From a virus: a stretch of 64,000 nt of DNA. Made by a program: the position numbers and the translations under genes. Shown piece after piece: positions 2,272 to 33,757 of the stretch (position 1 is its first letter; every line of letters begins with the position of its first letter). Location: IMG/VR virus record IMGVR_UViG_3300043427_003402; one strand, written 5' to 3'. Below the pieces are notes generated by a model, which was not told the origin of the DNA, did no database searches, and saw only the letters and a list, made by a program, of their open reading frames with translations.

Positions 2272-2472
2272 CTACTGCGGGTTCTGCAAAGCGTTTACAT
2301 AACTGGCATACTGCAGGTTTTTGTAAATGTTTACCAAAGCCGCAGTTTTATACGCTTCTTGCTGCGCGCCCACCAACTCCGGTAGCTCCAGCTCCAACGT
2401 TTCTCTTGCTGTCTTTAAAATATCTTGTGCTTCTTTAAGGAGCGCGTCGCGCTCCGACAGCCATTTCGACAT
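2272..2472 (-). CDS. Small helical head-associated protein (MSKWLSERD...)
   Basis: ATG 2472 directly follows the upstream stop; KEAQ/KTAR/KTAA motifs. Confidence 0.55.
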   Translation of the reverse strand: MSKWLSERDALLKEAQDILKTARETLELELPELVGAQQEAYKTAALVNIYKNLQYASYVNALQNPQ

Positions 2473-2473
2473 T

Positions 2474-2707
2474 CTATACCTGCCCGTACGCCGCAAGCGT
2501 CTCGTAATACGCCTGGTCAAATGCCAACTTCTCCTGCTCTGCCTGCAGGATCTGCGCGTATTCAGGATCCAGTGCAGCTAGCTTCGCTGTGTGCTCGTTA
2601 AACGCGGCGTCGAACAGCGCCTCTGTCTGCTCCGCTTCGTAAACGGCCGCCTGCTTAAGCAGCTCCTGCTCGTAAGCTTGATGTTGCAGTTGTGCGTAGA
2701 TACTCAT
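2474..2707 (-). CDS. Small scaffold-like paralog (HTAKLAALDP family)
   Basis: 77 aa; shares LFDAAF.EHTAKLAALDP.YA..LQ.EQ.K.AFD with both neighbours; SD AGGAG. Confidence 0.7.
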   Translation of the reverse strand: MSIYAQLQHQAYEQELLKQAAVYEAEQTEALFDAAFNEHTAKLAALDPEYAQILQAEQEKLAFDQAYYETLAAYGQV

Positions 2708-2740
2708 TTCGTACTCCTGTTGGTTATGACGGGGACGGGT

Positions 2741-2971
2741 TTAAGCGATGCCATACTGCGCCAGCGTAGCGCGGTAGGCCTCGTCGAAGGCTATTTTCTG
2801 CTGCTCAACCTGCAGCATCTCCGCATAGCTAGGGTCAAGCGCAGCCAGCTTTGCCGTGTGCTCGTCGAACGCGGCGTCAAACAGGTCGGCGTAAGCCGTC
2901 TCCGCGGCGCTTTTTTGCACGTACGCGGCCCAAAATGCGTTCTCAGTAAGCGCGTCTTCTACGGACTTCAT
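2741..2971 (-). CDS. Small scaffold-like paralog (HTAKLAALDP family)
   Basis: 76 aa; same repeat; SD GGAGG. Confidence 0.7.
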   Translation of the reverse strand: MKSVEDALTENAFWAAYVQKSAAETAYADLFDAAFDEHTAKLAALDPSYAEMLQVEQQKIAFDEAYRATLAQYGIA

Positions 2972-2973
2972 TT

Positions 2974-3540
2974 TTAGAAACCTCCAAACTGATTAAAACC
3001 GCGGGCCCCCATCTGTTGTTGCACGTGCAGGACGGCATCCTCAAAGCCTTGGTTAAAGGCCGCCTTCTCTTGTTCCGCCGCCAATAGCTGAGCGTAGCTA
3101 GGATCGAGGCTTGCCAGCTTTGCAGTGTGCAGCTCAAAAACTTCGTTGAACAGGTCAGCTTCTGCTTGCGCTTCACCTGCTTGCTTGAGCGGCTCCGGTG
3201 CGGTGGTTCCAAAAACGTTTTGCCGCGCCATGTCGGCAAGGAACAAAGACGTCGCTTCCGCAGCGGCCAGTTTGCGCAGGTCTTCAGGCAGCGCCTCGAG
3301 GCCCGCAAGGAGATCAAACTCGGTGCTAGCGGACTTTTTCTCGTCCTCTTCTCCGCCCTTTTCCTTGGCCCGGCGCATGCGCTCTCTGAAAGCGTTGTCT
3401 CGCTCCGTCTTTTCGTCCTTGGAATGTTCTTTATCTTTATCTTTGTCTTTCTCGTCTTTTTTGTCGCTGTCTGCCGCCAGCTTCACACCTTCTTCAGTAA
3501 GCTGGCTAATCAGACTCTGTATAAATTCGTTGCTGGCCAT
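2974..3540 (-). CDS. Scaffold-like protein with charged linker and HTAKLASLDP module
   Basis: ATG 3540 has SD GAGGAGG; D/K/E-rich tract; C-terminal module paralogous to the two downstream ORFs. Confidence 0.65.
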   Translation of the reverse strand: MASNEFIQSLISQLTEEGVKLAADSDKKDEKDKDKDKEHSKDEKTERDNAFRERMRRAKEKGGEEDEKKSASTEFDLLAGLEALPEDLRKLAAAEATSLFLADMARQNVFGTTAPEPLKQAGEAQAEADLFNEVFELHTAKLASLDPSYAQLLAAEQEKAAFNQGFEDAVLHVQQQMGARGFNQFGGF

Positions 3541-3569
3541 TAAAGCATCCTCCTCAGTAGGCACTTAAA

Positions 3570-3884
3570 TTATACGCGCGGGTGCACTTCGTCGTGTAAG
3601 CCGTAGAATTTGCGCGCTGTACGCCGCACTAAACTTGTTGCGGCGTCCGCAATCGGCCGCATCAGCACGCCGTCGATAACGCCGCCCATACTACCACCAA
3701 GTAAAGACGTGCCGCCGGCACCGCGCGGATTACTCATGAGCCCGTACGCGACGTTGTTGAGTGAGTTACGCGCCATATCGGCTTTGTGCGCGTCGAAGTA
3801 TGCCGCAGTCGCACGTGCGTGCTGCTGCACGTCTTCCATTACGGCCCCGTGCTTGATTAGCTGGTACGCCTCGAACGGCCGCAT
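3570..3884 (-). CDS. Hypothetical virion protein with leader MRPFEAYQLIKHGA
   Basis: 104 aa, start overlaps the protease stop; Gly-rich segment. Confidence 0.6.
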   Translation of the reverse strand: MRPFEAYQLIKHGAVMEDVQQHARATAAYFDAHKADMARNSLNNVAYGLMSNPRGAGGTSLLGGSMGGVIDGVLMRPIADAATSLVRRTARKFYGLHDEVHPRV

Positions 3885-5314
3885 TAAAAGTCTCCAAAGC
3901 TCGTGGTGTAGGCGCTGTGCAGCTGCGCCGCACCGTAGCCAAATTCGCCGCTAGCTTTCTTGTGAATTCCGTGGTACACCGCCAAGTACGGAAGCAGCCC
4001 CGCGTCTAGGTTAACGCGTAAGTTTGCCGCTTTAATTATAGGCGCGCGCATGCGCCGCGGAGTGACGAACGGTTCTATGTACGAACGTTTCTCTGCAAAT
4101 GGCCGAACTAGGTTCATTACACGCTCTACGTTCGCAAAACTTTTACGCGCAAACTTAATTTGCGCGTTTTGCGCAATTTCATCCCGCCAGCCATCAACGG
4201 GCGGAACGTACACCACAGCTTGGTCCAGTTCGTACGCGAGTTTTGGTGTGAGCGCATCCGAACCGAACGTAACGTAGTACAGTTCTGAGGGGCGCAAGCA
4301 CATACCGAGTTTAGCCAAACCGGCGGTCACTTCGTCTAAACTAAACTGCCTCAGCTTGTCCAGGACGGGCGGCGGCAGTACCGGCTCGTTTTGGTACAGG
4401 GTTTGAAACTCGTCCAAGACCACATCCAGCGGGAGATCCGGTCCCTGTTTCTCAATCTTCGCCGATTTTGCCACCGGGTTGCTCGCGAGAGTACGCGTGT
4501 CTAAGCGCGCCTGATCACGCGCCACCTTCATGATTGAAAGGGCCTCCGGCGCAGCGGGACTCTCGACGCAAGACTCGTCGAAGAAATGCGGGAAGTCATT
4601 TATCATGCAGACCGGCGTACCGTCTTCTTTAATTTGCCGCAAGCTGTACGCGCTGGTACCGGGCTTGATGTGTACGCAATACTGCGCGCGGGTGGGCGCA
4701 AGGTTTTGGCAAATGCTGCACCGGTCAAACGGCACGCGCGCTGCCATCGAGGTCCCGATCGTTGCCCCGTTATCTAGCCTGTCTGCCCACTTTTTACCTT
4801 TGGTGCGGTCAATCCAGATTAGGTTCTCTACGCGGTGCATCCGGTTGTTCCAAAACGTGTTCTGGATTCCGCCGATTGCCAACCGGGGATCCGTATTACG
4901 ATGCTCCTCAAACACATGGCCTTTAAGAAAGGTCTTGTAGCCCCAGCCTGGACGGATACGAGCTTTGAACTTATCGAAGAAGCTCATAGCTGTGTCTGCC
5001 GGCGGAAGCCCGAGCAGCGCTTTCTCCGGGAACGCGTCGCCGTTGTTGTTGACGCCCCAAAATTCGCTCGCGCCCAAGCCGATTACCAAGGCGTACACCC
5101 TGCCCGGTACGGCTTTTACGTTGTGGCACTCCGCTAAAGCTTCTTCCGCCGCCGCAGTCTTAACTTGGTGCTGCCCAACGGAGCGCCGGTCGTCGACCTC
5201 TAAGCCACGAGACGTTTGCGCCAGTTTAACTACGCGCGACTCACCTGTGTTCAACGAGTGGTCGTCACCGAGCGCGATGTGCTTCTCAAGGTGGGGCGGG
5301 TGTTGCATTTTCAT
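3884..5314 (-). CDS. Prohead (capsid maturation) protease with Zn-finger
   Basis: NNNGDAF, YKTF, VFEEHRN (candidate catalytic His), GTSMAA (candidate catalytic Ser), CSIC..YCVH, ESCVESPAAPEA; upstream of scaffold and capsid genes. Confidence 0.7.
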   Translation of the reverse strand: MKMQHPPHLEKHIALGDDHSLNTGESRVVKLAQTSRGLEVDDRRSVGQHQVKTAAAEEALAECHNVKAVPGRVYALVIGLGASEFWGVNNNGDAFPEKALLGLPPADTAMSFFDKFKARIRPGWGYKTFLKGHVFEEHRNTDPRLAIGGIQNTFWNNRMHRVENLIWIDRTKGKKWADRLDNGATIGTSMAARVPFDRCSICQNLAPTRAQYCVHIKPGTSAYSLRQIKEDGTPVCMINDFPHFFDESCVESPAAPEALSIMKVARDQARLDTRTLASNPVAKSAKIEKQGPDLPLDVVLDEFQTLYQNEPVLPPPVLDKLRQFSLDEVTAGLAKLGMCLRPSELYYVTFGSDALTPKLAYELDQAVVYVPPVDGWRDEIAQNAQIKFARKSFANVERVMNLVRPFAEKRSYIEPFVTPRRMRAPIIKAANLRVNLDAGLLPYLAVYHGIHKKASGEFGYGAAQLHSAYTTSFGDF

Positions 5315-5315
5315 A

Positions 5316-6167
5316 TTAGAGATTTAGGTCTTTTTTGTAGTTATGGTGCAGCATAGCAGCAGCTGCCTCACCCACAACCGGCGCGAAGGGCCCAGTGGGG
5401 AGCGCCAATGTGGAGGTCCCAAGCGACGTCAAGTATGGGTGCTTAACGACAAAAGGAAGCTCGCCAGACCGCCCTTGCGCTTTCTCGCGGTCAGCGTAAT
5501 GCGAACGCGCGGTGTAGTGCAATACAGGCGCGGCGCCATACATTGCACCCGCAGCGGCAAACGGGCCGCCCACCAGCGAGGCGGGTATTCCCAGTGCGTA
5601 ACGGGTAGCGTACGGGTGGTTTAAGGCGAAAGACTCGACTTTATCCTGAAAAGAAGGTTCCGTAGCCGTAGGCGAGGAGGCTTCAGCCGGGACAACCGCC
5701 GTCTCGGCCGCAATCTTAGCCATCGCAAATTGGTACCCTGCAGCGTACGCTGCGTCTAGCCGCTGGTTGTACATTTGACCCGTCCTTTCGGTTGCTGAGC
5801 TCATTTTCTGTAAAGCAAACGGGTCTGTCGCGCCGTACGCCTGCTCTACCGCCTTGCGCTTGTTATCGACGTCGTTGTGCCCCTTCATGGCGCCCGCGCC
5901 CAAGCCCACAAGTCCGCCAGCGCCGGCCATACCGAGCGTGCCGCGGAACCCCGCGTTGTGCTTACGGAGCAAGATACCTGTACCTATGCCCACCGCGCTA
6001 CCTACGGCGCCGCCCTCTAAAATACCTTTCGCGTAGTGCGGCGTGGGATTTATGACCACGTCAGTAGGGTCGTCCTCGTGACGCGCGAATGAAAACTGGC
6101 TCGCGGCCTTAAGGCCCGTGTTTTGCGTTTGCAAGCTGCTTACGGCTAAAGATCCAAGAGTGTGCAC
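5316..6167 (-). CDS. Glycine-zipper virion protein (HPY family)
   Basis: GTG start with SD GGAGG; GGAVGSAVGIGTG and GAGGLVGLGAG segments; NHPY and LPFVVKHPY motifs; KAAS/KIAA sites. Confidence 0.65.
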   Translation of the reverse strand: MHTLGSLAVSSLQTQNTGLKAASQFSFARHEDDPTDVVINPTPHYAKGILEGGAVGSAVGIGTGILLRKHNAGFRGTLGMAGAGGLVGLGAGAMKGHNDVDNKRKAVEQAYGATDPFALQKMSSATERTGQMYNQRLDAAYAAGYQFAMAKIAAETAVVPAEASSPTATEPSFQDKVESFALNHPYATRYALGIPASLVGGPFAAAGAMYGAAPVLHYTARSHYADREKAQGRSGELPFVVKHPYLTSLGTSTLALPTGPFAPVVGEAAAAMLHHNYKKDLNL

Positions 6168-6186
6168 CGCGTCGCCTCCTAAGGTT

Positions 6187-6215
6187 GCACGAGCCAGCGG
6201 TAGGCCGGCTCGTGC
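6187..6215. other. GC-rich intergenic hairpin
   Basis: GCACGAGCC...GGCTCGTGC 9-bp inverted repeat; no clear U-tract. Confidence 0.4.
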
Positions 6216-6240
6216 GCTGTGCCGTTTTACTTATCTATTG

Positions 6241-7020
6241 CTAGATCAGCCCCATCTGCCGCAACGCGAATTGCTGGCCCAGATAGGCGGCGGCCTTAAC
6301 TTCGTCGCCCGCGGGCTGCATCATCTGATGTACACCGTAACCGAGCCCGCCAGCCGCCGCGACTCCCAGACCGGCGATGCCAGCGCGCTCCAAACGGCTC
6401 CGATTATGCCACAAGGCGTCAGCGGCCTGCGAACCGAGACTGCGAACCGCGGGCGTATGGCTCTGTGGGCCCGGTACTTTTTTGTTTGCTTCTTGGCGGA
6501 TTTCAAGCATGTCTTGCAGCACCTGCTGCTTTTCTTGCTCCTTTAGAAACGCGTCTTGGCGCTGCTGTAAACTCTTGGGGCTAACCGGCTGCCGCTTAAT
6601 TACATTGCCATTCGCGTCGTACTGCCCGCGTTCAGGCGCACTCAGGTTCTCTTTCATTTTGTTAATTGCGAATTGGCGCTGTTCTTCGGTCAGCGCCTGC
6701 TTGTTCATCATGTAAACGTACTCGGCGAACTTGATCGCTTCGTCCACCACAGCGGCGGCCTTCACGTCAGCCTGCATCTGCATCGAGGGCGAAGAGCCAG
6801 GGGCAGGAGTCGAGTAGCCGGCTCCGGCGTCAGCCGAACCCGAGATCAGCGCCATAGCCTGCATGTTAGCGCGGTTTTGTGCCAAGGCGGACGACGTTGC
6901 CTCGACAGCGTCGCTGTCCATGTGCCCGCTGTTCACGCCCATGCCCACTTGCCCTGGAATCAAGGCATCAGACGCCTGCTTCGACAGCAGGTCTACGTAC
7001 AGATCGTAAGGGGTTGTCAT
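6241..7020 (-). CDS. Hypothetical internal virion protein with leader MTTPYDLYVDLLSKQAS
   Basis: 259 aa, SD GGAGG; several KxA sites; C-terminal Gly/Ala hydrophobic helix. Confidence 0.65.
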   Translation of the reverse strand: MTTPYDLYVDLLSKQASDALIPGQVGMGVNSGHMDSDAVEATSSALAQNRANMQAMALISGSADAGAGYSTPAPGSSPSMQMQADVKAAAVVDEAIKFAEYVYMMNKQALTEEQRQFAINKMKENLSAPERGQYDANGNVIKRQPVSPKSLQQRQDAFLKEQEKQQVLQDMLEIRQEANKKVPGPQSHTPAVRSLGSQAADALWHNRSRLERAGIAGLGVAAAGGLGYGVHQMMQPAGDEVKAAAYLGQQFALRQMGLI

Positions 7021-7150
7021 TTTGTAGCTTCCTCCACAGTCAGCTTTGTATGTGCAATCACGTCACCAGAGAGATTATCGAACCGTGATCAAATTGCACA
7101 TTTTGGGGCCCTTTTAAATTGAGTAAAAGTGTAAATCCGGAGCGTACTGG

Positions 7151-7723
7151 TCATAACAAAGGCGAAACAAGCTTCGATCCGACATCCGCGGCCTGCAGCA
7201 GTGGCATGAAGGGCGCAGAACGCGTTTTTGTCATAGACTCTTGCGTGCGCACCAGTTCCATATACGTTGTGTGGTCGACGCCGTCGTAGTTCAACATGCG
7301 TTTAATTAAGGAGCCGGCGACGATGTGGTCTTTTGCGACGTCCGGCGCGGCGCGGGAGATGGACACGAAAAGCTCGCGCACGCGGCTTGGCTCTTCGCGC
7401 GCCAGTTCAGGGTAGCGCTGCAGCATGTCCTTGTAGGCGGAGTTTAACTGCATCTGCGAAACACTCGCCGCACCGCCTAACATAGCACCTGCCGCTGCAG
7501 TTGCGGTGCCCAACGCCATCAACCCGTGCCCGGGCATAAAAGCGCTCCGCGCGTTAGCCGGCAAAGACCTCGGAAAGTTACGGTTCAGGAGCATACCTGC
7601 ACCGGCAAGGAGCCCGCCGCCTATACCGCCTGTAAGGAGGCTTGGAATAGCCGCCGAGACTGGCGACGCGTAAGCGGTAATCGGAGCGTGTGTTACGCTG
7701 GGCAACTGACGGTCGTTATACAT
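7151..7723 (-). CDS. Hypothetical head-module protein with glycine zipper
   Basis: 190 aa, translationally coupled to the upstream ORF. Confidence 0.6.
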   Translation of the reverse strand: MYNDRQLPSVTHAPITAYASPVSAAIPSLLTGGIGGGLLAGAGMLLNRNFPRSLPANARSAFMPGHGLMALGTATAAAGAMLGGAASVSQMQLNSAYKDMLQRYPELAREEPSRVRELFVSISRAAPDVAKDHIVAGSLIKRMLNYDGVDHTTYMELVRTQESMTKTRSAPFMPLLQAADVGSKLVSPLL

Positions 7724-8495
7724 CTGCGCTCACTCCATTCTTTGCCGCCCGTATTGCGGCGTTAATTTTTGCAAGTTTTGCTTGGGCCTCACCCGTCGTC
7801 TGCGCTAGCGCCACCAACTTCGCGCTCGCGGCCTTCATGTGTTCAAAATCTCTCAGCGCCTGCGGCACCAACATCGCGATCGTCTGCCCGACCATTTCTT
7901 GCCGCTGGCTAGCCGCCTTCTCCAACACCGCCTCCAGCATCGACGCGACGGGGCCGCCGCACGCGTTCAATAGCTGCTGAAATTCAGCGGTCTTCTCCAA
8001 GCCCAACCGTTTGATCAAGTGCGCTTGGTGGCTCATCTTTTCCATTCCCAGACGAATTTCAGTGAGGCCAGTTTGGATCGCCGCCTCGCACGCAACCTTA
8101 TCTCGGTGCAGCTGCTGCTGTACGGCTCGGGTGTAGTCCACGGACGTAATGTTTTCAGTAGTAACGGACGCTGTCTTGGACCGCAGCTCTTCGCCTTCTC
8201 CTCGCGCCACCTTCACGGGCAGCGCCGCGGGTACTGACCGAGTAGCCAGCTTGGCTTGTGCCAGCTTGACAGCGGCAGCGTCTGCAATTGCAGGCTCGTC
8301 GTGACGGTCGAGCTGCATCGCGGTCTTAAAACTATGCCGGTTGACGCACGCAGTTAGCGCGTCAGTCACCTTCGGGCTGTAGCCGTGGTCGGAGGCGTAT
8401 TTCGCAACCAGCTCGTTTATGTCGCCGCCAGACGATCGGTGATTCTCGACGATGCACTGCGCGTCGGCCATGAGCTGAGGCTTAATATCCGGCAT
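7716..8495 (-). CDS. Hypothetical helical head-module protein with many KxA sites
   Basis: 259 aa; KYAS, KTAM, KLAQ, KTAS, EKTA, EKAAS, KAAS. Confidence 0.65.
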   Translation of the reverse strand: MPDIKPQLMADAQCIVENHRSSGGDINELVAKYASDHGYSPKVTDALTACVNRHSFKTAMQLDRHDEPAIADAAAVKLAQAKLATRSVPAALPVKVARGEGEELRSKTASVTTENITSVDYTRAVQQQLHRDKVACEAAIQTGLTEIRLGMEKMSHQAHLIKRLGLEKTAEFQQLLNACGGPVASMLEAVLEKAASQRQEMVGQTIAMLVPQALRDFEHMKAASAKLVALAQTTGEAQAKLAKINAAIRAAKNGVSADV

Positions 8496-8539
8496 AGTTA
8501 AAGACCTCGTTTCAGAAGGGGTCTTTTGAATTATGCGCC

Positions 8540-8920: not shown

Positions 8921-8989
8921 TTGACCTTTACTCCTTATAAAAGACGTGTTAGGATGACCCTTGCCAGTATACGCAGCAGCGAGAAGCGA

Positions 8990-11983: not shown

Positions 11984-12031
11984 TGGACGGCAGGCGCTCC
12001 AAACTACGAACTAAACGGGCTCCCGCATCAG

Positions 12032-12056: not shown

Positions 12057-12101
12057 TCTACAGGTTTTACGGGCCCATACTTATACACGGGAGTCAGCTA
12101 A

Positions 12102-12818
12102 ATGCAAGAAGCCGAGCGCCGAATCGCAACTGGTGCATATTTTGCCAAGGTTGCGGCGCGTATAAAGACCGCGAGCGGCGGGCCTATGGGATTCGCTTGG
12201 ATAGGCGACGCGCCAGAAATTGGCCGCGCGTACCCTAACGAAAAGCTCGAAGCTGACTTTCAAATGCAGCACCCAATTATGTCCACTCTGCACCCCGGCG
12301 TGTACGGCGGCGCAGCTGTAGGCGGATTGGCGGGCTACGCCGCCCGTGGGCTACCTGGCGCAGCGGCTGGCGCGTCAATAGGCTTGCTCGCTGGCTCGCT
12401 TGGCGAAGGTGCGTTGCGGTACAGGCATTTGATGAACGCGCGCGAGCGCATGCTGGCGGGTAAAAATCCGGTCGACCCTAATTTGTCGCTGGACCAGTTC
12501 GGAAAGCACGCTAGCTTAGAGATGATCTCGGTCGTACCTTCTATGGGTGGGCACTTTGCCGACCATCGACTTGAGCAAGACTACGTTATGAAGCACCCTA
12601 CAACGTCTACGCTGCACCCCGGTATTTATCTGGGCGCCGCGGGCGGTGCTGCGCTAGGCGCGCTTCGCGGGCACGCGGCCACCGGCTTGCTACTCGGCGG
12701 GTCCGCCGGCATGCTGGCTGAAGGGGTGATGCGCGCGAATTACTTACTTGACGCTCGGCGTAAACTGCTGGCCAAGCAAAACCCCGTCGACACTCGGTTT
12801 TCTTTTAGCCAGTTTTAA
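12102..12818 (+). CDS. Two-repeat glycine-zipper virion polyprotein
   Basis: Duplicated unit LE.D..M.HP..STLHPG.Y.GAA.G...G.LAEG.R...L.AR..L.A.NPVD..S..QF; units preceded by KTAS and KHAS. Confidence 0.75.
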   Translation: MQEAERRIATGAYFAKVAARIKTASGGPMGFAWIGDAPEIGRAYPNEKLEADFQMQHPIMSTLHPGVYGGAAVGGLAGYAARGLPGAAAGASIGLLAGSLGEGALRYRHLMNARERMLAGKNPVDPNLSLDQFGKHASLEMISVVPSMGGHFADHRLEQDYVMKHPTTSTLHPGIYLGAAGGAALGALRGHAATGLLLGGSAGMLAEGVMRANYLLDARRKLLAKQNPVDTRFSFSQF

Positions 12819-13971: not shown

Positions 13972-14478
13972 ATGTCGGCATATAAAATGTATTTAGAGAC
14001 GCAAAAGTCTGCGAATATGCTTTCCACGATCGGCAACGCGCACACCACCGTGATGAACCCTGCAATGGCTGGCGGCGTCATAAACGCGCTCGGTTCAGGG
14101 CTTAAGAGCCTTGGTGGGTTTATTAAGGGTAAAACGACGGCTGGCGCGCGGCATGCTACCGGTAATTTTTTAGAGCGCGCAGGTAAAGGCTCCGAAAAAT
14201 TGGGCGAGTACACTTCCGATGTGGCGCACGGTATCCTGAACGCCGGCCCCGGAATCGAATACGACGCGTCGAAGCTGCCGTCGTTGATGGGTTTTGAGCA
14301 ACGCATCGGGACAGGTAAAAAAACAAAACTTACGGCGCAGCGCGGGCTTCTGTGGGCGGGCGGCGCCGTAGGTGCCGGAGAGGCCGCGGGCGCGCTGATG
14401 AAAGCTTTCAAGGGGCCCGAAAAGCAGGCCCGGGAAGACGCGGCGGCGCTGATCGCGTTCTGGGAGAATTCTGTATGA
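13972..14478 (+). CDS. Gly-rich virion protein with leader MSAYKMYLETQKSA
   Basis: 168 aa, SD GGAG, C-terminal glycine zipper. Confidence 0.65.
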   Translation: MSAYKMYLETQKSANMLSTIGNAHTTVMNPAMAGGVINALGSGLKSLGGFIKGKTTAGARHATGNFLERAGKGSEKLGEYTSDVAHGILNAGPGIEYDASKLPSLMGFEQRIGTGKKTKLTAQRGLLWAGGAVGAGEAAGALMKAFKGPEKQAREDAAALIAFWENSV

Positions 14479-17631: not shown

Positions 17632-18373
17632 CGTCTGCCCCTGGTACATTTATGCGCTGAATGATTCGTGCAGCGTTGGCGCGGATCAAGAGCAGAATCT
17701 TTTTAATGACCAAAGGGTCTTGCCGTACGCGGAAGGCAGGGATCGTCAACACCTGTAAATTCAACGTGCACTCGAACAGGTCGTCATACTCCTCAGTTAG
17801 TACCGGGCCGTTCAAATCAGGGTACCCTACGTACTGAAGGTTAAAAGCTTGCTGTATGTCTAGGCGGCTAGCGATGAGCGCGCCGCGTATGCGCTGAGCC
17901 AGCAGGGTCGCGCGTAACGAATCGCGGTCAAGCACCTGAATTTGGTAGATCAAGGTTTCGCGCACGGCCCGTCGGTCGTCTTGCGGGGCGTCTGCACCCG
18001 CCATCTTGACGGCGTCTCGCATCGCATGGGTCTCTGCCTGCGCGCGCCCAAACTTTACGACGATTAAAGGCCGCTTATCCCGAGCGGCCATTTCGTTGCG
18101 CCGAAGGTCTTTTGCAATCAGCACCGCGGAGCGCTCCGGATCCTCGGGGAAATAAATAAAATCGTCATCAGTCATGAACCGGTGCTCGATCACGCTGAGG
18201 ATGCCACTCTGCACGAGAAGCGGCAGAAACTCGTAATTGGTTGAGGCGATTGCGCTCAGGTGCGACATCAAGGTCGCAACGGACGCCTGCGCAAACTCGT
18301 TAGGGTCGTTGTTTATTGCAAGCGGGTCGTTGCCGTTAGGGTCGGGGTAACCTGCGAATGGCTCGATCGACAT
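17624..18373 (-). CDS. Putative tail terminator/neck protein
   Basis: 249 aa; KRPLIVVK and YQIQVLDRDSLRATLLAQRI resemble tail-completion proteins. Confidence 0.4.
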   Translation of the reverse strand: MSIEPFAGYPDPNGNDPLAINNDPNEFAQASVATLMSHLSAIASTNYEFLPLLVQSGILSVIEHRFMTDDDFIYFPEDPERSAVLIAKDLRRNEMAARDKRPLIVVKFGRAQAETHAMRDAVKMAGADAPQDDRRAVRETLIYQIQVLDRDSLRATLLAQRIRGALIASRLDIQQAFNLQYVGYPDLNGPVLTEEYDDLFECTLNLQVLTIPAFRVRQDPLVIKKILLLIRANAARIIQRINVPGADDA

Positions 18374-25270: not shown

Positions 25271-25345
25271 AGCTACCTCTAATAAAGCGAGCACGACAAA
25301 CGCGTCCTTTTAAACGCGCGCGTAGGGGTACCTGCGGCAAACTAC

Positions 25346-28300
25346 CTATTCGATCGAAATCGGATCGTTAATACGAATCCGTCCCTCTCGGTAAGCAGCG
25401 ATTGCCTCCTCTTTTGTCCGGAACCGTGCTACGGGGCTGCTACCCTGCGGCGCGGTCGCCTTCCACAAACCCAGTACCGTCTCTTGCGACGGCACGTGCA
25501 TTGGCGCATGATTTAGTGGGTTAAACAAGTTGTTTGACGGTAACATTTTGTAAACATCCTTGACGCCTTCCGGCGTAACGGGAATGTTCACACCCATCTG
25601 GTCTCCGTCAAAGTCAGCGTTTAAGCCCTTCAGCACCAACGTGTTCATGTGTAAACTCTTTCCGTCAACAATACGGGGCTTCAGCCCCACCAAATTAAAC
25701 TTATGCAAACTAGGTGCGCGGCTCAGGACGAGAGGAGTTTTGGCCATCACGTTTAGCACCGCTTGAGAAGCTGTTGGCGTCTTATCCTCGAAATGGCGGG
25801 CGGCTACCGGCAACGGCATACCGCCCTGAACAAGATCACCTATCGCGTGGTTGCGATAAATTTTCATAGCCATGTCGTGGGGAATTCCAACTTCATCTAT
25901 ACCAAGAGACGGATCGGGAACGATAACCCCGCGGCCAGTAATGTCCTGGCGGCGGCTAAGAAGTTTGCTTTGGAAATAACCATCTTTTGCCTGCCCGCTT
26001 CCTGCAATCACTTTCAGGAACCCTTGTGCAGGTCGTTCACCTCGCATGTTTTCAACCACCGGGTCAAGCCCCTGCACTTTTTCAAACGCCTCGTGTAAAC
26101 CCTTGCGTAGGTCCCGTATCGTGGTAGGGTCGCCGATCTTTTTATGCTCTGTGAGCTGATCGTTGACCAACATCAGCGATTTGTACAGGTGATTTGCGTC
26201 AGATACTACGAGGCGGCCAGTTTCGGAATCAGGGTATATTGGCCGCATAGCGGGAGGAATTACCGGAACGTGATTCAAAATGTAAGCGTCTTGCGGTTTT
26301 AAATCTGCTTGGTCTAAAGCTTTAAGAAACTTTAATTGTTTGTAGATAGCGTCCTTTTTTGAGACAGAATTAGTGCTGTTTACTTCTGAACTTAGTTGTT
26401 TGATCTTAGTCTTTACATCAATCTTTGATAACTGTTCTTTAATGTGTTCGGCGCCGTGGTTGTATAGCGTATCAGCGTATGACTGCTTCGTCAAGCCCAG
26501 CAGCGTACGCGTTGCGTTAGCGAATAAAGGGTTGACAATCGGCTCCGTCAAATTGATGTGCGACCAGCGGTTGCCGACAAGGCCGCCCGTGCTACGGGTG
26601 TCGAAAAGTCCACCCTCTTCGGGACGGTAAGGCAGGCCGGTCGTAGGATCAGGTTTATCGTGCACCGTTAGCGGCTGCGTGACTGCGCCCGAAGACATGG
26701 TTAGCACGTCCTTGTTAGTCATCGGAAGCAGCGCAATCGAGTTGCCTTCCTTTTTAAGGTTCAAGCCCATACCTTGAAGCATACCCTCAAACTTTTTGAA
26801 CGCAAACGTGGGCTTTGCCGGCGGCAGCGGCTTGCCCTGCCACATGGCCTGGAGCACCTCGGGGTTCGCTTCGCTCTTGTGCTGCACGTCCTGTAACAGC
26901 GCACGGCTGCCTTGGGCGAGAAGACTGTACAGGTCAAGCGTGCCGATGCTCTTGGCGCCTTCTTCGCCGCCTTTCGCTGGTCGAAGGTCAATGTCGTACT
27001 CGCCGCCAGACCGCGCGCTAAACCCGGTTTCGGCCTGCTTGAACAGCTTCAGCATGTACATCGGCCCCATCAACGTACGGCCAAGAGAACGCTTCGTAGT
27101 CGGATCAAAAAGCTCCTCGGTTCCATCCGTGCCCGCCTTACGCGCCAGCTCGTTCACTTTTTCCCAGACGTTCCCGGTTTGAAAGTGCGGAAATACTTGC
27201 TGCTTGATTCCAAGCTTCTGTAACGACTTAGCGGCAATCGTCTCGAATATCTGCCCGTTGTTCATACGTGAGGTCAACCCGGCAGAGTTCAGGATCACGT
27301 CGGGGATCTGCCCGTCGGCAGTCCGTGGCGCCTCGTGGTCGGGGATGATTGCAGAGATGACGCCTTTGTTACCGTGCCGACCTGAAAGCTTGTCCCCGAC
27401 CTGCACTGTGGCTTTGGCGGAGATGGCGACTTTTATCCCCTCGGGCGTCTTCTCCACCGCCATGACTTTTCCTTCGTACGGCCGGTCCCACACGACGGCC
27501 TTATTTGCGTAGGGCTGGCGGAAGCCTTTGTTTGCGCGCCCGAGAATCAACTCTTCCGGCGTAACGAGGCGTTTGCGCAAGCCCAACATAATAGGGTCGC
27601 CGTTCGTTAACACCTGCCCGACCTTCACAACGCCGTGCTCATCCACCTTCGCAAAGTGCTTATTTTCAAACTCGGTCGGGAAGTGCGCCTTGAACTTCGC
27701 CAAGTCAAAAACGGAGCGTTCGTCAATGAGCGCCTCTTCGGTGTGCAGGTGCTGGCTGACCAGCTTGTCGGCGCCTTGACGCGTCACCACGATCGCGTCT
27801 TCGTGGTTCAGTCCCTTATACGGCATAAACGCGACGGTTAGATTTTTACCGAGTGCAGCAGCAGCGCCGGTCGTAAAGTTGTTGCCCGCGAGCAACTGCC
27901 CGGGTGTCACCTTGTCGCCAGGCTTGACTTGCAGGTCGCCGTGCAAGAAACTGCCGCCATTCAAGGGAAACTCGTGCGGGTAGTTTACTTTGACGACTTG
28001 CCCTTGGGCGGTCTTCAAATGAATGACACCGGGATCAATTTTGTGAACAGTGCCTGCGGCGGGGCTTCGTACAACGAAGTCTTCCAGCGCGTTACGCGCA
28101 AACGGCGTGTCCACGATTGGCGGTTCGCGGTCCACTAAACTTACTGCCTGCCCCAGCATCTTCGCGCCCATCGCAGCGCGGTGCGCGTGTGTCGACTGGA
28201 TGAACGGCACCATGGTGGTAGACACTGTGAACTGCGAACCTGTCGGAATGCGGTACTGTACGTGCTGCGGCTTGGCGTCAATCACCATACCCTGGTGCAC

Positions 28301-29635
28301 TGCGCGCACCAAGCCGTGCTCTGTCGGCTCCGTATCGTGCGCAACGACCGAGTCGAAGAGTTCAACCGGCGTCTTGAACTCGGGTTTACCTGTCCGTGCG
28401 TTGAGCACGCGGGTCATTAACTGCTTACCCTGCTTCGTAGCACTCAGCGCAAGACGCACGTCCACGCCCGCGCTGGCGTTGTCGGGCGTACGTACGGGGT
28501 CGATAAACCCCATGCTTGATGGGTGAACGGCGCGAACCTCCGAGCCGATCGCGTGGGTATCACCAATTGCGCCCTCGCCCAGAGACGACAGTTTAAACGC
28601 GTTTTCCTTCATCTCAAGCGGGTTAATTTGCATGACGTGGTTAGACTGCGCGGACTGCGTGAAAAACTGATCAATGAACGGCTGCACATACCGGTGGAGG
28701 CCCACGTCCCCCAGCGCTTCGGCTTTATCCACGCGAGGGCGAAGTTTATACGCCAAGTTAAACCGGTTTTTCTCCAGTCGTTCGCGCACGAAATCTTCGA
28801 CGCCGTGAATCTCCGTAAACGCGAGCTGGTCTTTACCCGTCGGGTCTTTTTCTTTCCGGTGCACTGCCAAGACTTGTTTCGCAGCGGCCTGCAGCACGGG
28901 CGCGGTTATTTTGTCGGCCTCAAGGCCTAAAGTTAAACGGTTGACCCCGGGATCCATCTGCACATTGTGAAAATACTCGCGGATATTTGTCCGCAGCTCT
29001 GGCAGCGCCGTCGGCACGGGCTTGTTTGGTTGAATCATGCTGTGCATTGTACTGAGCGCCGCGTGCTCGTCTTTCTCCGAAAACGGCGTGTCGAAAGCCT
29101 TGCCCAAGCCTAAACTGTCGGCACCGAGAACGTGCTTCAGCACTGGGTTTAGCGGAACGCGAGTGTTGCCGAACTTGATGTTGAACTGATTTGCTTCGGG
29201 GTCGAGGGTCAGCGCGAAGTTCCGGCCTTTTGCCAAGTTGAAGTCTGCGACAGCCTCGCCAAGACGATTAACTTTGGTGTACGCTGCCGGCCGCAATCGC
29301 CGTTGCATGTTCACCTGGTACTCCTTACCGTTAATGACAAACGTGTGCCGGTTCGTAGGTGTGGGCAGAAAACCAATCCGCACAACCTTTTTGTCCAGCA
29401 GCTTGTTGTCGGCCCCGTGCATGGCTACAGTGGCCTTGACAGGCACGCCCCAAGTTCCGCCAGACATGATCGCCTGCTTCTGCCCGTTGTAGTCCGTCGG
29501 GTCAGGCATATCCGGCGCGTGAACCTGCGTCACTGTGAGCGTGCGGTTCGCGTTGGTCACCACAGGGAAAGTGTTTTTAACGCCCTCACTGAACTGGTGC
29601 ATCATGGCTTGAAAAGTTTCTTGAGGTGTACGCAC
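25346..29635 (-). CDS. rpoB-rpoC: RNA polymerase beta subunit fused to the beta' N-terminal half
   Basis: FVINGKE, HPSSMGFIDPVRTPD, RAAMGAKMLGQA, NHEDAI, GDKLSGRHGNKGVI, SRMNNGQ; then beta' motifs GGLFD, VPVIPP.MRP, LSRRQD.TGRGVI, RAPSLH, NADFDGD (25601-25621). Confidence 0.95.
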   Translation of the reverse strand: MRTPQETFQAMMHQFSEGVKNTFPVVTNANRTLTVTQVHAPDMPDPTDYNGQKQAIMSGGTWGVPVKATVAMHGADNKLLDKKVVRIGFLPTPTNRHTFVINGKEYQVNMQRRLRPAAYTKVNRLGEAVADFNLAKGRNFALTLDPEANQFNIKFGNTRVPLNPVLKHVLGADSLGLGKAFDTPFSEKDEHAALSTMHSMIQPNKPVPTALPELRTNIREYFHNVQMDPGVNRLTLGLEADKITAPVLQAAAKQVLAVHRKEKDPTGKDQLAFTEIHGVEDFVRERLEKNRFNLAYKLRPRVDKAEALGDVGLHRYVQPFIDQFFTQSAQSNHVMQINPLEMKENAFKLSSLGEGAIGDTHAIGSEVRAVHPSSMGFIDPVRTPDNASAGVDVRLALSATKQGKQLMTRVLNARTGKPEFKTPVELFDSVVAHDTEPTEHGLVRAVHQGMVIDAKPQHVQYRIPTGSQFTVSTTMVPFIQSTHAHRAAMGAKMLGQAVSLVDREPPIVDTPFARNALEDFVVRSPAAGTVHKIDPGVIHLKTAQGQVVKVNYPHEFPLNGGSFLHGDLQVKPGDKVTPGQLLAGNNFTTGAAAALGKNLTVAFMPYKGLNHEDAIVVTRQGADKLVSQHLHTEEALIDERSVFDLAKFKAHFPTEFENKHFAKVDEHGVVKVGQVLTNGDPIMLGLRKRLVTPEELILGRANKGFRQPYANKAVVWDRPYEGKVMAVEKTPEGIKVAISAKATVQVGDKLSGRHGNKGVISAIIPDHEAPRTADGQIPDVILNSAGLTSRMNNGQIFETIAAKSLQKLGIKQQVFPHFQTGNVWEKVNELARKAGTDGTEELFDPTTKRSLGRTLMGPMYMLKLFKQAETGFSARSGGEYDIDLRPAKGGEEGAKSIGTLDLYSLLAQGSRALLQDVQHKSEANPEVLQAMWQGKPLPPAKPTFAFKKFEGMLQGMGLNLKKEGNSIALLPMTNKDVLTMSSGAVTQPLTVHDKPDPTTGLPYRPEEGGLFDTRSTGGLVGNRWSHINLTEPIVNPLFANATRTLLGLTKQSYADTLYNHGAEHIKEQLSKIDVKTKIKQLSSEVNSTNSVSKKDAIYKQLKFLKALDQADLKPQDAYILNHVPVIPPAMRPIYPDSETGRLVVSDANHLYKSLMLVNDQLTEHKKIGDPTTIRDLRKGLHEAFEKVQGLDPVVENMRGERPAQGFLKVIAGSGQAKDGYFQSKLLSRRQDITGRGVIVPDPSLGIDEVGIPHDMAMKIYRNHAIGDLVQGGMPLPVAARHFEDKTPTASQAVLNVMAKTPLVLSRAPSLHKFNLVGLKPRIVDGKSLHMNTLVLKGLNADFDGDQMGVNIPVTPEGVKDVYKMLPSNNLFNPLNHAPMHVPSQETVLGLWKATAPQGSSPVARFRTKEEAIAAYREGRIRINDPISIE

Positions 29636-29637
29636 GG

Positions 29638-30927: not shown

Positions 30928-30947
30928 GCTGATCTCCTAGGGCTGGC

Positions 30948-31613
30948 CTACGCCGTATAAATTGAGTCGCTGTCTTCTAGCTCATTTGCACGCAACTTTA
31001 GGTGCGGGAAAGCGTCCGCTAGTTGGTCGCGTCGCATCTTGTTAATGAGCGGCTCCGCTAGGGTGCTCCCGATCGCGGCCCCTAACCCCAACCCCGCTAC
31101 CGGATGCCGCCCTAGCGCGGTGGCGGCGGCCGCGCCAACGGCCATACCCGCCGGCCCCGCGATGAATGGCGCTGCCATGGCTGCAGCGTAAGGGTGCCGC
31201 ACCAAAAAGGGGAGCGGTTTACCGCCATGCGCATAATAGTTATCCACGGCCGCCTGATGCTTGTGGACCTTATCCAGCGTACTGGTGACGGCGTGCGCAC
31301 CTACGCCTGCGATCGAACCAAAAGACGCGCTAACAAGTGGCGCGACCGCATGCGCGTAGCGGGCCAAAACACGCAGGGACGGGTCGCTGACAGTCTTAGG
31401 GATAAGTTTTCGCGCAAGCAGCCCCGCTCCTGCGCCTAGTGACGCCCCTATACCGATTTTCGCTGCAAGGGCTTCGCGGCGATCCGCCAGTTCGTTGAGG
31501 TCCGCCGGAGCGTTGCCTTTCCACGGGTAGCGCAAAATTGTGTCGGGCGCGTAAGGTTCGGGCGGTGCGGCTGCCGCGCGCTTTAAGAGGTACAGGTGAT
31601 AAGGTAACGACAT
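30948..31613 (-). CDS. Glycine-zipper virion protein (HPY family) with leader MSLPYHLYLLKRAA
   Basis: Single copy of the unit repeated in 29638..30927 (KH..AV..Y...G..LPFLVRHPY). Confidence 0.7.
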   Translation of the reverse strand: MSLPYHLYLLKRAAAAPPEPYAPDTILRYPWKGNAPADLNELADRREALAAKIGIGASLGAGAGLLARKLIPKTVSDPSLRVLARYAHAVAPLVSASFGSIAGVGAHAVTSTLDKVHKHQAAVDNYYAHGGKPLPFLVRHPYAAAMAAPFIAGPAGMAVGAAAATALGRHPVAGLGLGAAIGSTLAEPLINKMRRDQLADAFPHLKLRANELEDSDSIYTA

Positions 31614-31632
31614 CTACTATCCCCTTCCCTCA

Positions 31633-31938
31633 TTATAGGCCAAACATAGACCGGTAGTACCGAAGGTTGGCCAGCTGCACCTCTTGCGGTGTGAGGCGCA
31701 CCTGCGGCGGATTTATTGCGGAAAAGTTCGTCGCGAGCGCGGCTATATCTGCGGCGCTACGCGCCTTGGCTAGGACGGTGAGCGGATGGCTGTTCAACCT
31801 GAATGCACGTAACTGCGACACGGGATCCCCATGCGCGTCTTCCGGAAAAGGCGACGTGGCCGTGTCATTCGATTCCAAGAACCGGTTGGTCGGCAGGTCG
31901 ACGGGGCGGAATATAGAGTAAGCGCTTTTATCTAGCAT
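31633..31938 (-). CDS. Hypothetical protein (MLDKSAY...)
   Basis: SD AAGGGG before ATG 31938. Confidence 0.55.
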   Translation of the reverse strand: MLDKSAYSIFRPVDLPTNRFLESNDTATSPFPEDAHGDPVSQLRAFRLNSHPLTVLAKARSAADIAALATNFSAINPPQVRLTPQEVQLANLRYYRSMFGL

Positions 31939-31948
31939 CGCGTCCCCT

Positions 31949-32332
31949 TTAAACAGTATTAGCCGTTCCACCGAACACGCCTAAAACTCCACCCACTATG
32001 CGCTGCTCCAGCTTCGGGCGCGCTGGGATAGGTTTACGTGTAGGGTCCCAAAGTTTTTTCGCTGTCGCGTGATAGCCTTTTCCAAGTAAGGGGAAGGCGA
32101 CACCGCCCAGCGCCCCGGCTGCAACGGCACCCCCGACGGCCCCCCTTAAGGCGCGTTGCCCTAAACTGGTTTGCCCGTCGTCGTTTAGCGCGCCAGCCGC
32201 AGCACCGGTCACTGCACCTGTGCCGGTGTGCCGCGCAACGTGCGCCACCGCCGAGCCAAAGCTCGCTTGCTTTACGGCGCGTGCACGGGCGAAGGCGGAA
32301 CGAGCCAAGTAACCAGCAGTCTGAGAGTCCAT
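31949..32332 (-). CDS. Small glycine-zipper protein with KQAS leader
   Basis: GAVTGAAAGA, GAVGGAVAAGALGG. Confidence 0.6.
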   Translation of the reverse strand: MDSQTAGYLARSAFARARAVKQASFGSAVAHVARHTGTGAVTGAAAGALNDDGQTSLGQRALRGAVGGAVAAGALGGVAFPLLGKGYHATAKKLWDPTRKPIPARPKLEQRIVGGVLGVFGGTANTV

Positions 32333-32334
32333 GT

Positions 32335-33138
32335 CTAACTCCGTAAATAATCTACAGCGCGAGTATAGCGTTGCGTCTGCTCCGCAATTTCCGTGCGTAG
32401 CGCCTGGATGCGCGCGGGCGTTACCTTAAGCTTTTCCGCGAGTTGCTGCCCGCTTAACACTGGCGCGCCCTTGTACCCGACGGTGTGTTCGAACACCACT
32501 TTGTGCACAGGGCTGAAATCGTGGTGCAAAAAGTCCAGCACCATTTCCCGGTGGCCAGTTTGTTCCATAGCCGGCTGGTTCGCTCCCGCAGCTTCGGTGG
32601 CGGAATACAGGCTCGTTTGCGCCCGGTGCAGGTCGCCTAGCCGGTGCGGCGCAACACCGAGGCGCTGCGCAATTTGCGTCGGTGTCGGTTCCGTACCGAG
32701 CTCTAGGCGTAAGTCGGCTTGTGCTGTTATCGCCTTATTCCGCATATACGCGCGATCAAGGGGCATGCGAACATCTGACCTGTGCGTCATTACAAACCCG
32801 TCTAACTTCCGTAAGTGGTTTGTAAAGTGCGTGCCCAGCGTACCTTTAGCAGGGTCGTAGCTGGGCAGGGATTGCGCCATCAAACGCTTTGCTTCCGCCT
32901 CCAAGACGACCCGCGGCAGCCCTGACGCCTCCCACCGCGAGACCTCGCGATGCACTAACGGCGCGTACTGCTCAAAAACTGCGTTAGCTGAATTCTTTTT
33001 CGGCGCGGGGCTTTCCGTAGCCGCCGCTCCGGTGCTCGCCACACTATCGGCGCCTAACATCTGCTCCTCGAACGAGGGGCGCTTGACCGCAGGTTTGGCA
33101 GCCTGTTTCTTTTTAAGCTGCTCAATAAAATTAGCCAC
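32335..33138 (-). CDS. Sigma70-family RNA polymerase sigma factor
   Basis: Region 2 YAPLV...SYDPAKG..GTH; VRMP; region 3 ELGTEPTPTQIAQRLGV; region 4 HTH SGQQLAEKLKVTPARIQ. Confidence 0.82.
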   Translation of the reverse strand: MANFIEQLKKKQAAKPAVKRPSFEEQMLGADSVASTGAAATESPAPKKNSANAVFEQYAPLVHREVSRWEASGLPRVVLEAEAKRLMAQSLPSYDPAKGTLGTHFTNHLRKLDGFVMTHRSDVRMPLDRAYMRNKAITAQADLRLELGTEPTPTQIAQRLGVAPHRLGDLHRAQTSLYSATEAAGANQPAMEQTGHREMVLDFLHHDFSPVHKVVFEHTVGYKGAPVLSGQQLAEKLKVTPARIQALRTEIAEQTQRYTRAVDYLRS

Positions 33139-33757
33139 TGGTAAGCCTCGGCGGCTCGGGTTGCAGCGCGGAGTAATGTGCCGCGCGCGCTAGCGCGCTG
33201 TCCAAGACCTGCCGTTTAGCGGCGCGCGCAGCAGCTGAGTCCGCGAAATAGCCAGCGGCCAACGTACCGGCTACGGCGCCTCCGAGGCCGGCTGCGGGGC
33301 CCACTGTGCGGTAAAGTGGCACGCCCGCAGCGAGGCCGCCCGTTATGGCCCCCGCCAACGTAAGCGGGTAAAGCTCGCGTCGGCGCGCCATGTACTCTGC
33401 GCGGCTGGTAGGATCATTCGCTAGCGCGTACTGAAACAACGGCTCTTCTAAGTGTGGCGGCAACGCAGCGACTTTTTGCTGTGCTTGCGCGGGCGAAAGC
33501 CGCGCGGTTTTCTCCAGTACAGCTGCCCACTTTTCAAGCCTCGACAAGGTGCCATACGCTTCGCGCACAGCAGCACGGGACGCCACTTTTTCCACGTGGG
33601 TGGCCCGGTGCCAGTTAGCTACACAAGTTTCTTGCGCCTTCTTGGCAAACTCCTGCAGGTGTGCCGCGTGCGCGGTATTCCGCTCGTCGAACGCTTCGCC
33701 TAGTCCGGCGGCCTTTATAACGCTGTCAGCGAGTACTTTTAAATCTGCGGAAGCCAT
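33131..33757 (-). CDS. Virion protein with KxA sites and glycine zipper
   Basis: KAAG, EKVAS, EKWAA, EKTAR; GAITGGLAAG, GLGGAVAG. Confidence 0.6.
   Translation of the reverse strand: MASADLKVLADSVIKAAGLGEAFDERNTAHAAHLQEFAKKAQETCVANWHRATHVEKVASRAAVREAYGTLSRLEKWAAVLEKTARLSPAQAQQKVAALPPHLEEPLFQYALANDPTSRAEYMARRRELYPLTLAGAITGGLAAGVPLYRTVGPAAGLGGAVAGTLAAGYFADSAAARAAKRQVLDSALARAAHYSALQPEPPRLTSG

Follow-up and report, generated by a model that had tools for sequence, protein, structure and literature searches.

The window analyzed here, a 64,000-nucleotide stretch of the IMG/VR virus record IMGVR_UViG_3300043427_003402, belongs to an uncultured phage and carries its module of head and virion-transcription genes, as judged from gene matches to PHROGs, Pfam, and NCBIfam. 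Besides a head-maturation protease, a major capsid protein, an SNF2-family ATPase, and an RNA polymerase, its genes encode a ribonucleotide reductase and a large terminase. We consider it probable that two elements operate together in this module: a K-x-A cut code read by the head protease, and a portable N-terminal tag that resembles the head-targeting sequence of phage T4. The cut code is well supported by comparative evidence, and we regard it as highly likely. That the Tyr-rich tag targets cargo into the head is argued from analogy, position, and portability, and here we lean toward targeting by a modest margin of belief. Cleavage and packaging are steps that we infer, and ejection of the tagged or cut proteins from the head is pure inference.

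In the proposed mechanism, the protease encoded at 3884-5314 would cut at K-x-(A/G), with the next residue mostly A or S. The cut position, between the A of K-x-A and the following A or S, is taken by analogy with the herpesvirus assemblins and could lie one residue later. The predicted substrates of the protease are its own two linkers, which it would trim, the capsid protein, which would lose an N-terminal arm of about 30 residues, the scaffold family, which would be cut at several sites, and about ten more head-region proteins, which would lose short N-terminal propeptides. A subset of these propeptides would constitute a portable tag of 13-17 residues that works like the T4 capsid targeting sequence (CTS). 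It would begin with Met, mostly followed by Arg-Pro, and continue with a hydrophobic or aromatic residue (position 4 or 5), an acidic one, and Tyr or Phe (position 7 or 8); K-x-A would come after 2-6 further residues. The tag may bind the assembling prohead core, bring its cargo in, and then be clipped off. The untagged polymerase might enter via tagged partners, namely the helicase and a sigma-like protein, or through its own uncleaved N-terminus.

At the sequence level, the putative protease matched only PHROG 18299; it gave no Pfam match at E ≤ 0.1 and no NCBIfam match, and a PDB sequence search with the protease profile returned nothing meaningful. Foldseek alone gave a weak result on the AlphaFold2 (AF2) model (E 0.03). 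Using VIA-align, the model could be aligned with T4 gp21 (5jbl_A) at Z 9.6, with a root-mean-square deviation of 3.4 Å over 131 aligned residues, and with the proteases of varicella-zoster virus (VZV; 1vzv, Z 9.1), pseudorabies virus (PrV; 4v07, Z 8.7), and human cytomegalovirus (HCMV; Z about 7.0), whereas unrelated MCE-domain structures scored Z ≤5.3. The predicted structure of the 3884..5314 product thus has the fold shared by T4 gp21 and herpesvirus assemblin. A first-pass annotation, made from the sequence alone, had already called this gene a protease, and the PHROG match and the fold both uphold that call. From its N-terminus, the protein comprises a propeptide and a catalytic domain (approximately residues 56-265), which contains a Cys-rich insert, and then a disordered linker and a helical domain at the C-terminus. 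The candidate catalytic residues, taken from alignment only, are S189 and H138, which are invariant, and H133 and H215, which are nearly invariant.

The two K-x-A sites of the protease lie at K52 and K263. In the homologue alignment K52 is nearly invariant, and K263 and A265 are invariant. The AF2 model (pLDDT 84) contains only two long low-confidence segments, residues 44-52 and 266-297, which flank the catalytic domain and each adjoin one of these conserved sites. Sites flanking the protease's own domain are what autoprocessing predicts. A profile search retrieved 4,840 cluster representatives of the family at E ≤ 1e-3 (50% identity clusters), 2,417 of them at E ≤ 1e-30, and 145 new representatives among the top 150 were used for a family-wide site test. 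K-x-A-[AS] was present 31-44 residues before the N-x-N-G-D motif in 110 of 134 representatives, compared with 3-10 for control patterns, and K-x-[AG] occurred within 30 residues after the F-F-D-x-S motif in all 123 anchorable representatives. The site after the catalytic domain takes the form K-[VIL]-A-S throughout the family. Distant members occur in mycobacteriophage Bxz1-type phages and Bacillus phage G; in the literature, which we covered incompletely, we found no K-x-A head-protease consensus and no cleavage data for Bxz1-type phages or phage G. Many family members of 840-1340 amino acids match the profile in two stretches about 400 residues apart, which suggests inteins or other insertions inside the gene.

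The same motif recurs in the genes that accompany the protease. Two syntenic relatives, represented by IMG/VR contigs of 106 and 153 kb with proteins 40-68% identical to those of the window, have the same gene order: protease, cargo, scaffold family, two further genes, and capsid protein. In both relatives, the capsid protein, the protease, the cargo, and the scaffold-like protein with its two paralogues all have the motif at the corresponding alignment position, and the residues preceding it often differ. In 20 homologues of the capsid protein, whose full-length orthologue gave a weak HK97-fold match, neither the K nor the A of the site varies. The scaffold-like protein contains one K-x-A-A near its N-terminus and at least two conserved internal K-L-A-[AS] sites, and its K90/A92 and K141/A143 are invariant in the alignment. 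Orthologues of the Gly-rich protein 5316..6167 begin right after the motif, and the longest possible open reading frames (ORFs) in both relatives start at the conserved body. The sigma-like protein retains K-x-A-A in both orthologues, its N-terminus being otherwise variable in the alignment. The site of 12102..12818 is kept in one orthologue and reads K-Q-A-D in the other, and the two close relatives yielded no orthologue of 31949..32332. The N-terminus of 7716..8495 is itself conserved around the site, and K-V-A-S is found in gp220, its counterpart in Salmonella phage Arash. A complex prediction with protease residues 56-476, the scaffold-like protein, and the cargo 3570-3884 scored 0.05, which speaks neither for nor against binding.

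Motif statistics point in the same direction. In a list of 53 hand-curated window genes with starts set by hand, we searched the first 40 amino acids for K.[AG][AS], a motif that the first-pass annotation had defined on the same window data, which is a caveat on the enrichment test. The motif was present in 15 of the 53 genes, compared with 3.5 ± 1.75 in local shuffles, none of 3,000 of which reached 15, and with 3.25 genes expected from whole-protein shuffling. Its density was 0.87 per 100 positions in the first 40 amino acids and 0.19 elsewhere. Eight control patterns, in which the letters were reordered or K was replaced by R or E, matched 1-5 genes, and removing two paralogues left 13 of 51 genes against 3.3 expected. 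The signal was confined to the head and polymerase block (2-33757), where 14 of 34 genes had the motif (2.6 expected); in the tail block, 1 of 19 had it (0.9 expected). Four related loci with tool-supplied gene calls gave 24 of 100 genes against 8.8 ± 2.7, a count that none of 2,000 shuffles reached. Neither the T4-type motif [LI].E (12 of 53 N-termini; 12.0 expected) nor the phiKZ-type motif [SAG].E (17 of 53; 20.7 expected) was enriched. Orthologue conservation is stronger evidence than these motif statistics.

The shuffles also bear on a trivial origin of the motif, in which Ala/Lys-rich N-termini would produce it by chance or composition, or in which the leaders would be Sec/Tat-type signal peptides for host export, cut at an A-x-A-like site. 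Head-region proteins are Ala-rich, and K-x-A-A superficially resembles the small-x-small sites of signal peptidases. However, with local composition kept, no shuffle attained the observed count, and the scrambled patterns remain flat. Moreover, the leaders have no hydrophobic core, one of them sits on a cytoplasmic ATPase, and the motif tracks a single phage protease family rather than the hosts. We therefore judge a trivial origin extremely improbable.

Five proteins of the window carry more than a K-x-A site. Together with those of relatives, their leaders give the consensus M-(R)-P-[aromatic/H/I]-[DE]-x-[YF], followed by 2-6 residues and K-x-A, for a total of 13-17 residues. The Met-anchored pattern is found at five ORF starts of the window and at none in reversed-sequence controls. 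Without the anchor, it has 6 matches in 20,558 residues, 5 of which are located at residues 3-5. The five tagged bodies, namely the SNF2 helicase, whose gene lies next to those of the polymerase, and four small Gly-rich proteins, share no mutual blastp similarity at E ≤ 1, and their leader codons differ, indicating that the constraint acts on the peptide. The leader of the 3570..3884 cargo is conserved in four orthologues. The window leaders and those of 14 helicase homologues have aromatic or hydrophobic residues at positions 4/7 or 5/8 (4/7 in 8 of the homologues), a resemblance of pattern only. The shell, scaffold, and protease are without the tag.

All leader examples quoted in the first-pass annotation are present at the ORF starts that it gave, and its reading of them needs to be narrowed. 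It had described one shared leader on more than ten proteins; the Tyr-rich leader is on five, and about ten others have only K-x-A after unrelated N-termini. This second class of substrates comprises the capsid protein, the protease, the scaffold family, 5316-6167, 12102-12818, 31949-32332, and 32335-33138, with 7716-8495 and 33131-33757 as weaker members. Enzymes in the plural had also been listed among the leader-bearing proteins; the SNF2 helicase is one, and it is the only recognized enzyme with the leader in the window. For the ten small cargo and site-bearing proteins, Pfam gave only a weak glycine-zipper match and PHROGs none. In phages with more distant members of the protease family, the K-x-A sites are retained and a different shared leader is used, suggesting from sequence comparison that the cut/leader principle may be older than any one tag. 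This leader, A-Y-x-x-G-x-x-x-A-L-x-x-[YF]-K-[VL]-A, was seen on several small proteins of the loci L021 (1263-3481 and 17358-19136) and L023 (2842-4336).

The helicase shows how leader and body are joined. Its Pfam SNF2-rel_dom match (76.6 bits) starts at residue 20, and in the AF2 model of the leader, residues 5-11 form a short low-confidence helix followed by coil that holds K-M-G-A. Of 71 anchored homologues, 32 or more have K-x-[AG]-x placed exactly four residues ahead of the conserved core L-x-x-D-V-x-L-x-P-H-Q, and 10 or more begin right at this core. In an alignment of 29 sequences, the conservation of K12 is 90% or higher. Two fusions from relatives (P0063 and P0066) consist of a Cys-rich domain, a Nudix hydrolase, and an SNF2 helicase; the leader ends with K-x-A-A, which recurs ahead of both the Nudix and the helicase domain, so that the motif is found at each joint. 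P0063 lies on the 203-kb contig behind L020, and the contig of one fusion also carries a homologue of the protease (P0014). As judged from its sequence, this layout is that of a polyprotein with putative cleavage linkers. The sole Nudix gene of relative G2 is without the leader. A RapA-like role for the helicase was considered and stays speculation, since RapA is a weak PDB match (E 2e-6) behind the ISWI and SWR1 ATPases. Regarding the earlier proposal that the 3884..5314 protease cuts at K-x-A, the comparative evidence backs it on four counts: sites flank the protease's own domain, one lies at the capsid N-terminal arm with K and A invariant, leaderless orthologues start after the motif, and the fusions carry it at their joints. 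This support does not extend to the exact bond.

The phage is a distant relative of Salmonella phage Arash. Its nearest cultured relatives are Arash and the Vibrio phages D181, D148, and D69, with approximately 30-34% identity. In the published virion mass spectrometry of Arash, the polymerase β subunit (gp206) was detected with 128 unique peptides and 3516 spectra, the most spectra of any protein. The helicase, with 38 and 1148, was abundant too, at a level comparable to that of β' (40 and 1210) and the capsid protein (30 and 1333). The virions also contain gp216, the counterpart of β'-C. The sigma factor Gp10 is also present in Arash virions (PMC10585845). The helicase is thus a real virion component in the Arash lineage, so that its absence from virions, listed with the first-pass annotation as a refutation, is not what Arash shows. 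The polymerase β/β'-N fusion of the window phage (25346..29635) is without a K-x-A leader of its own and is presumed to be co-packaged cargo. Its residues 1-12 contain M-R-T-P-x-x-x-F-x-x-M, which is conserved in all three close genomes with no conserved K-x-A after it; the Arash homologue begins M-P-K-S-A-S instead. From its sequence, this N-terminus may be an uncleaved variant of the tag, or it may be unrelated to the tag. The sigma-like protein 32335..33138, encoded upstream of the polymerase genes, matched Pfam Sigma70_r3 at E 7e-5, under the gathering score, and had several weak NCBIfam sigma matches.

Several observations weigh against the cut code and the tag as we describe them. The residue after K-x-A is variable (A, S, N, K, R, D, E, F), and the true consensus may be looser than K-x-[AG]-[AS]; the enrichment of K-x-A by itself is only some 2-fold. 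Paralogues account for three of the 15 window matches, and the candidates 7716-8495 and 33131-33757 are weak. The Arash proteome lists 116 proteins, so its specificity is low. The Arash helicase lacks the leader yet is found in virions, and the tag is therefore not the only way in. Finally, the Arash table gives 100% coverage for several proteins with N-terminal K-x-A-S sites, which would argue against removal. We distrust this column, because it implausibly lists 100% also for proteins with only two unique peptides.

These coverage values, together with the moderate conservation of the capsid sequence upstream of its site, fit an alternative in which nothing is cut at K-x-A. The K-x-A motifs and Tyr helices would then be retained interaction motifs, contacting, for example, scaffold, portal, or DNA, and the protease would have another specificity. 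However, orthologues that start exactly after the motif and fusions with the motif at each joint fit a cleavage linker rather than a binding motif. In addition, the protease domain is flanked on either side by a site within a linker that is predicted to be disordered, and no other candidate consensus was seen, T4- and phiKZ-type x-E motifs not being enriched. Retention of uncleaved motifs therefore appears improbable.

The main rival to targeting accepts K-x-A as the cut site and denies that the Tyr-rich leader is an address. The leader could instead be a pro-sequence that, up to maturation, keeps membrane-active glycine-zipper proteins and the helicase inactive or soluble, or an element for docking the protease, and the cargo would enter by other contacts. 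All cut-site evidence applies equally to this explanation, and the leaderless Arash helicase reaches virions all the same. Furthermore, masking might be needed by four of the five tagged bodies, which are rich in Gly and resemble membrane proteins. Nevertheless, a mask or docking element need not sit at residues 1-8, where 5 of the 6 pattern matches lie, and the same tag is attached to a 104-residue Gly-rich protein and to a 520-residue ATPase. The 4/7 aromatic spacing matches the determinants of T4 targeting (PMC9026906), and the proteins without the tag (shell, scaffold, and protease) are those that need no address. We consider processing without targeting rather unlikely, and continue to favor a head-targeting tag that is clipped at K-x-A. 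The features on which this reading draws are collected in Table 1.

Table 1. Genes of the window that bear on head maturation and cargo loading, with positions in the window
Feature	Coordinates	Strand	Details
Prohead (head-maturation) protease	3884..5314	-	476 aa; PHROG 18299, E 4e-8
Cargo 1, Gly-rich	3570..3884	-	104 aa; leader and K-x-G-A at residues 1-14 (nt 3843-3884); start overlaps protease stop
Cargo 2	6241..7020	-	259 aa; leader and K-Q-A-S at residues 1-17 (nt 6970-7020)
Cargo 3, Gly-rich	13972..14478	+	168 aa; leader and K-S-A at residues 1-14 (nt 13972-14013)
Cargo 4, SNF2-family ATPase/helicase	20232..21794	-	520 aa; leader at residues 1-15 (nt 21750-21794), ending K-M-G-A before the core
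Cargo 5, Gly-rich	30948..31613	-	221 aa; leader and K-R-A-A at residues 1-14 (nt 31572-31613)
Major capsid protein, N-terminal part	2..682	-	227 aa (gene runs off the window); PHROG 2522; K-x-A-S at residues 31-34 before the conserved body
Scaffold-like protein	2974..3564	-	charged low-complexity middle; between protease and capsid genes; four motif copies
Small paralogue of scaffold C-terminal domain	2741..2971	-	K-x-A-A at residues 20-23, kept in orthologues; blastp against the 2974 and 2474 genes
Second small paralogue of scaffold C-terminal domain	2474..2707	-	K-Q-A-A at residues 18-21
Gly-rich protein	5316..6167	-	283 aa; 23-aa N-terminal extension ending K-A-A-S
Head-module protein	7716..8495	-	259 aa; K-x-A-[SN] at residues 32-35, possible site
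Glycine-zipper protein	12102..12818	+	238 aa; K-T-A-S at residues 22-25; weak Gly-zipper_YMGG match
Gly-rich protein	31949..32332	-	127 aa; K-Q-A-S at residues 21-24
Sigma-factor-like protein	32335..33138	-	267 aa; K-Q-A-A at residues 11-14
Weaker candidate	33131..33757	-	208 aa; K-A-A-G at residues 15-18; K-H-A-G at the aligned place in relative G2
RNA polymerase β fused to β'-N	25346..29635	-	1429 aa; PHROGs; 33% identical to Arash gp206
RNA polymerase β'-C	18373..20223	-	616 aa; without leader

Other genes of the window showed features of their own. The large terminase (8954-11839, plus strand) is about 400 amino acids longer than its orthologues owing to an intein with a LAGLIDADG domain (Intein_splicing at residues 123-497; LAGLIDADG_3, 61.7 bits), an insert absent from the two close relatives. 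The terminase of a distant relative (L022:3338-6277) is likewise long and has a faint LAGLIDADG match. The large subunit of ribonucleotide reductase (21869-25294, minus strand), encoded between the polymerase and helicase genes and without a K-x-A leader, contains an intein with an HNH endonuclease (Intein_splicing at residues 303-562; HNH_3) and a C-terminal TSCPD domain. At 48583-57543 (minus strand), 6 or 7 consecutive genes share an N-terminus of about 30 residues, M-K-K-K-L-x-V-G ... D-I-N-A-x-F-D-G-G, on bodies of 110-768 amino acids, one of which has fn3 and F5/8 type C domains; no orthologues were found in the two relatives. These genes look like a cassette of exchangeable fiber or receptor-binding proteins that share an attachment module. 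The gene at 57607-60510 (minus strand) encodes 967 amino acids with a weak bactofilin-like (β-helix) match below the Pfam cut-off and is probably a tail fiber or spike. Its two N-terminal K-x-A-[AS] matches lie outside the head block and are probably due to chance.

The closest functional precedent for the tag is found in phage T4, whose internal proteins reportedly carry a capsid targeting sequence, as described by Mullaney and Black in 1996. The CTS is present on the internal proteins IPI-III and Alt and is removed by gp21 (reviewed in PMC9026906). It reads M-K-T-Y-Q-E-F-I-A-E (PMC8442874), and residues 4 and 7 are needed for targeting, whereas residues 8 and 10 are needed for processing (PMC9026906). 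Like the CTS, the window tag is a sequence of 10-20 residues at the very N-terminus of unrelated non-structural proteins, starts with Met-basic-x-aromatic, has hydrophobic or aromatic residues at positions 4 and 7, and ends in the putative motif of its own protease. The likeness extends to the protease fold (5jbl, Z 9.6), a scaffold with multiple sites, and a capsid protein with a short N-terminal propeptide. Unlike in T4, the window motif is K-x-A/G instead of [LI]-x-E. The window tag also exceeds the CTS by a few residues, its cargo proteins include an SNF2 ATPase that is linked to the multisubunit RNA polymerase of the phage, and no homology between the proteases is detectable at the Pfam level. 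By this analogy, the window tag would work like a CTS and is not a member of the T4 family, since it fails the [LI]-x-E cut motif and has no detectable sequence kinship. The first-pass annotation had missed this 4/7 aromatic match, as well as the assemblin-like fold and the site of Ala followed by Ser or Ala.

In phages phiKZ, 201phi2-1, and SPN3US, the protease gp175/gp245 removes N-terminal propeptides from a subset of head proteins (PMC5694885, PMC10052503). The consensus in this group is S/A/G-x-E, and most propeptides are long, about 80-130 residues, with SPN3US gp45 and its 20-residue propeptide as a case of CTS length (PMC5694885). Features that the window phage would share, with its polymerase presumed to be in the virion from the distant relative Arash, are a multisubunit virion RNA polymerase in large myovirus heads, many internal proteins, and a gp21-like self-cutting protease. 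In contrast, the consensus of the phiKZ group ends in Glu, no short leader shared by unrelated bodies has been described there, the genomes are unrelated, and the window polymerase consists of a β/β'-N fusion and β'-C.

To our knowledge, head-loading tags and protease codes have been established by experiment only in T4 and, for processing, in the phiKZ group, both of which cut after Glu. What is new here is a K-x-A code together with a T4-like tag in an unstudied polymerase-carrying lineage, and a protease family of thousands without a curated model. If confirmed, the code and the tag would make the head-packaged proteins of many uncultured phages predictable from sequence, would suggest how a virion transcription machine is recruited, and would provide a second, orthogonal tag with which foreign proteins could be loaded into the heads of phages.

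Arash (OQ632216; PMC10585845) is the nearest cultured relative, with 34% identity in the protease, 33% in the β/β' fusion, and 30% in the helicase, and with a similar gene neighborhood. K-x-A-[AS] is present near the N-termini of its protease, gp223, gp220, and gp206. It differs in that the helicase is without the leader and no Tyr-rich leader occurs in the 40 kb examined, and the Arash paper is silent on processing and targeting.

A different comparison can be drawn with the herpesviruses, whose maturation proteases share the fold. Their assemblins cut between Ala and Ser in a hydrophobic-x-A-S context, both directly behind the catalytic domain (release site) and within the scaffold (maturation site). 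The window protease resembles them (1vzv, 4v07, 1at3, HCMV) in fold, with Z 7-9, and in the placement of K-[VIL]-A-S after the catalytic domain and of K-x-A-[AS] in the scaffold. It differs in having Lys two residues before Ala instead of Val, Leu, or Ile, with the cut before A or S being assumed in the window, and in its Cys-rich insert and large helical C-terminal domain. An evolutionary link in specificity is speculative. We tentatively extend it to a broader proposal, on which we would place less than even trust: K-x-A followed by Ser or Ala may be the specificity of the whole family of about 4,800 clusters, uncovered by Pfam and NCBIfam, which would share the assemblin fold and the Ala-Ser-type site, and in the polymerase-carrying branch a tag of about 14 residues may load an early-transcription kit of SNF2 ATPase, sigma-like protein, Nudix hydrolase, and, through them, the polymerase. 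Should this be true, the substrate code would link phage and herpesvirus maturation, and foreign proteins could be addressed into such heads. Confirmation of the K-x-A code in itself would add a further point of comparison between the maturation proteases of phages and herpesviruses.

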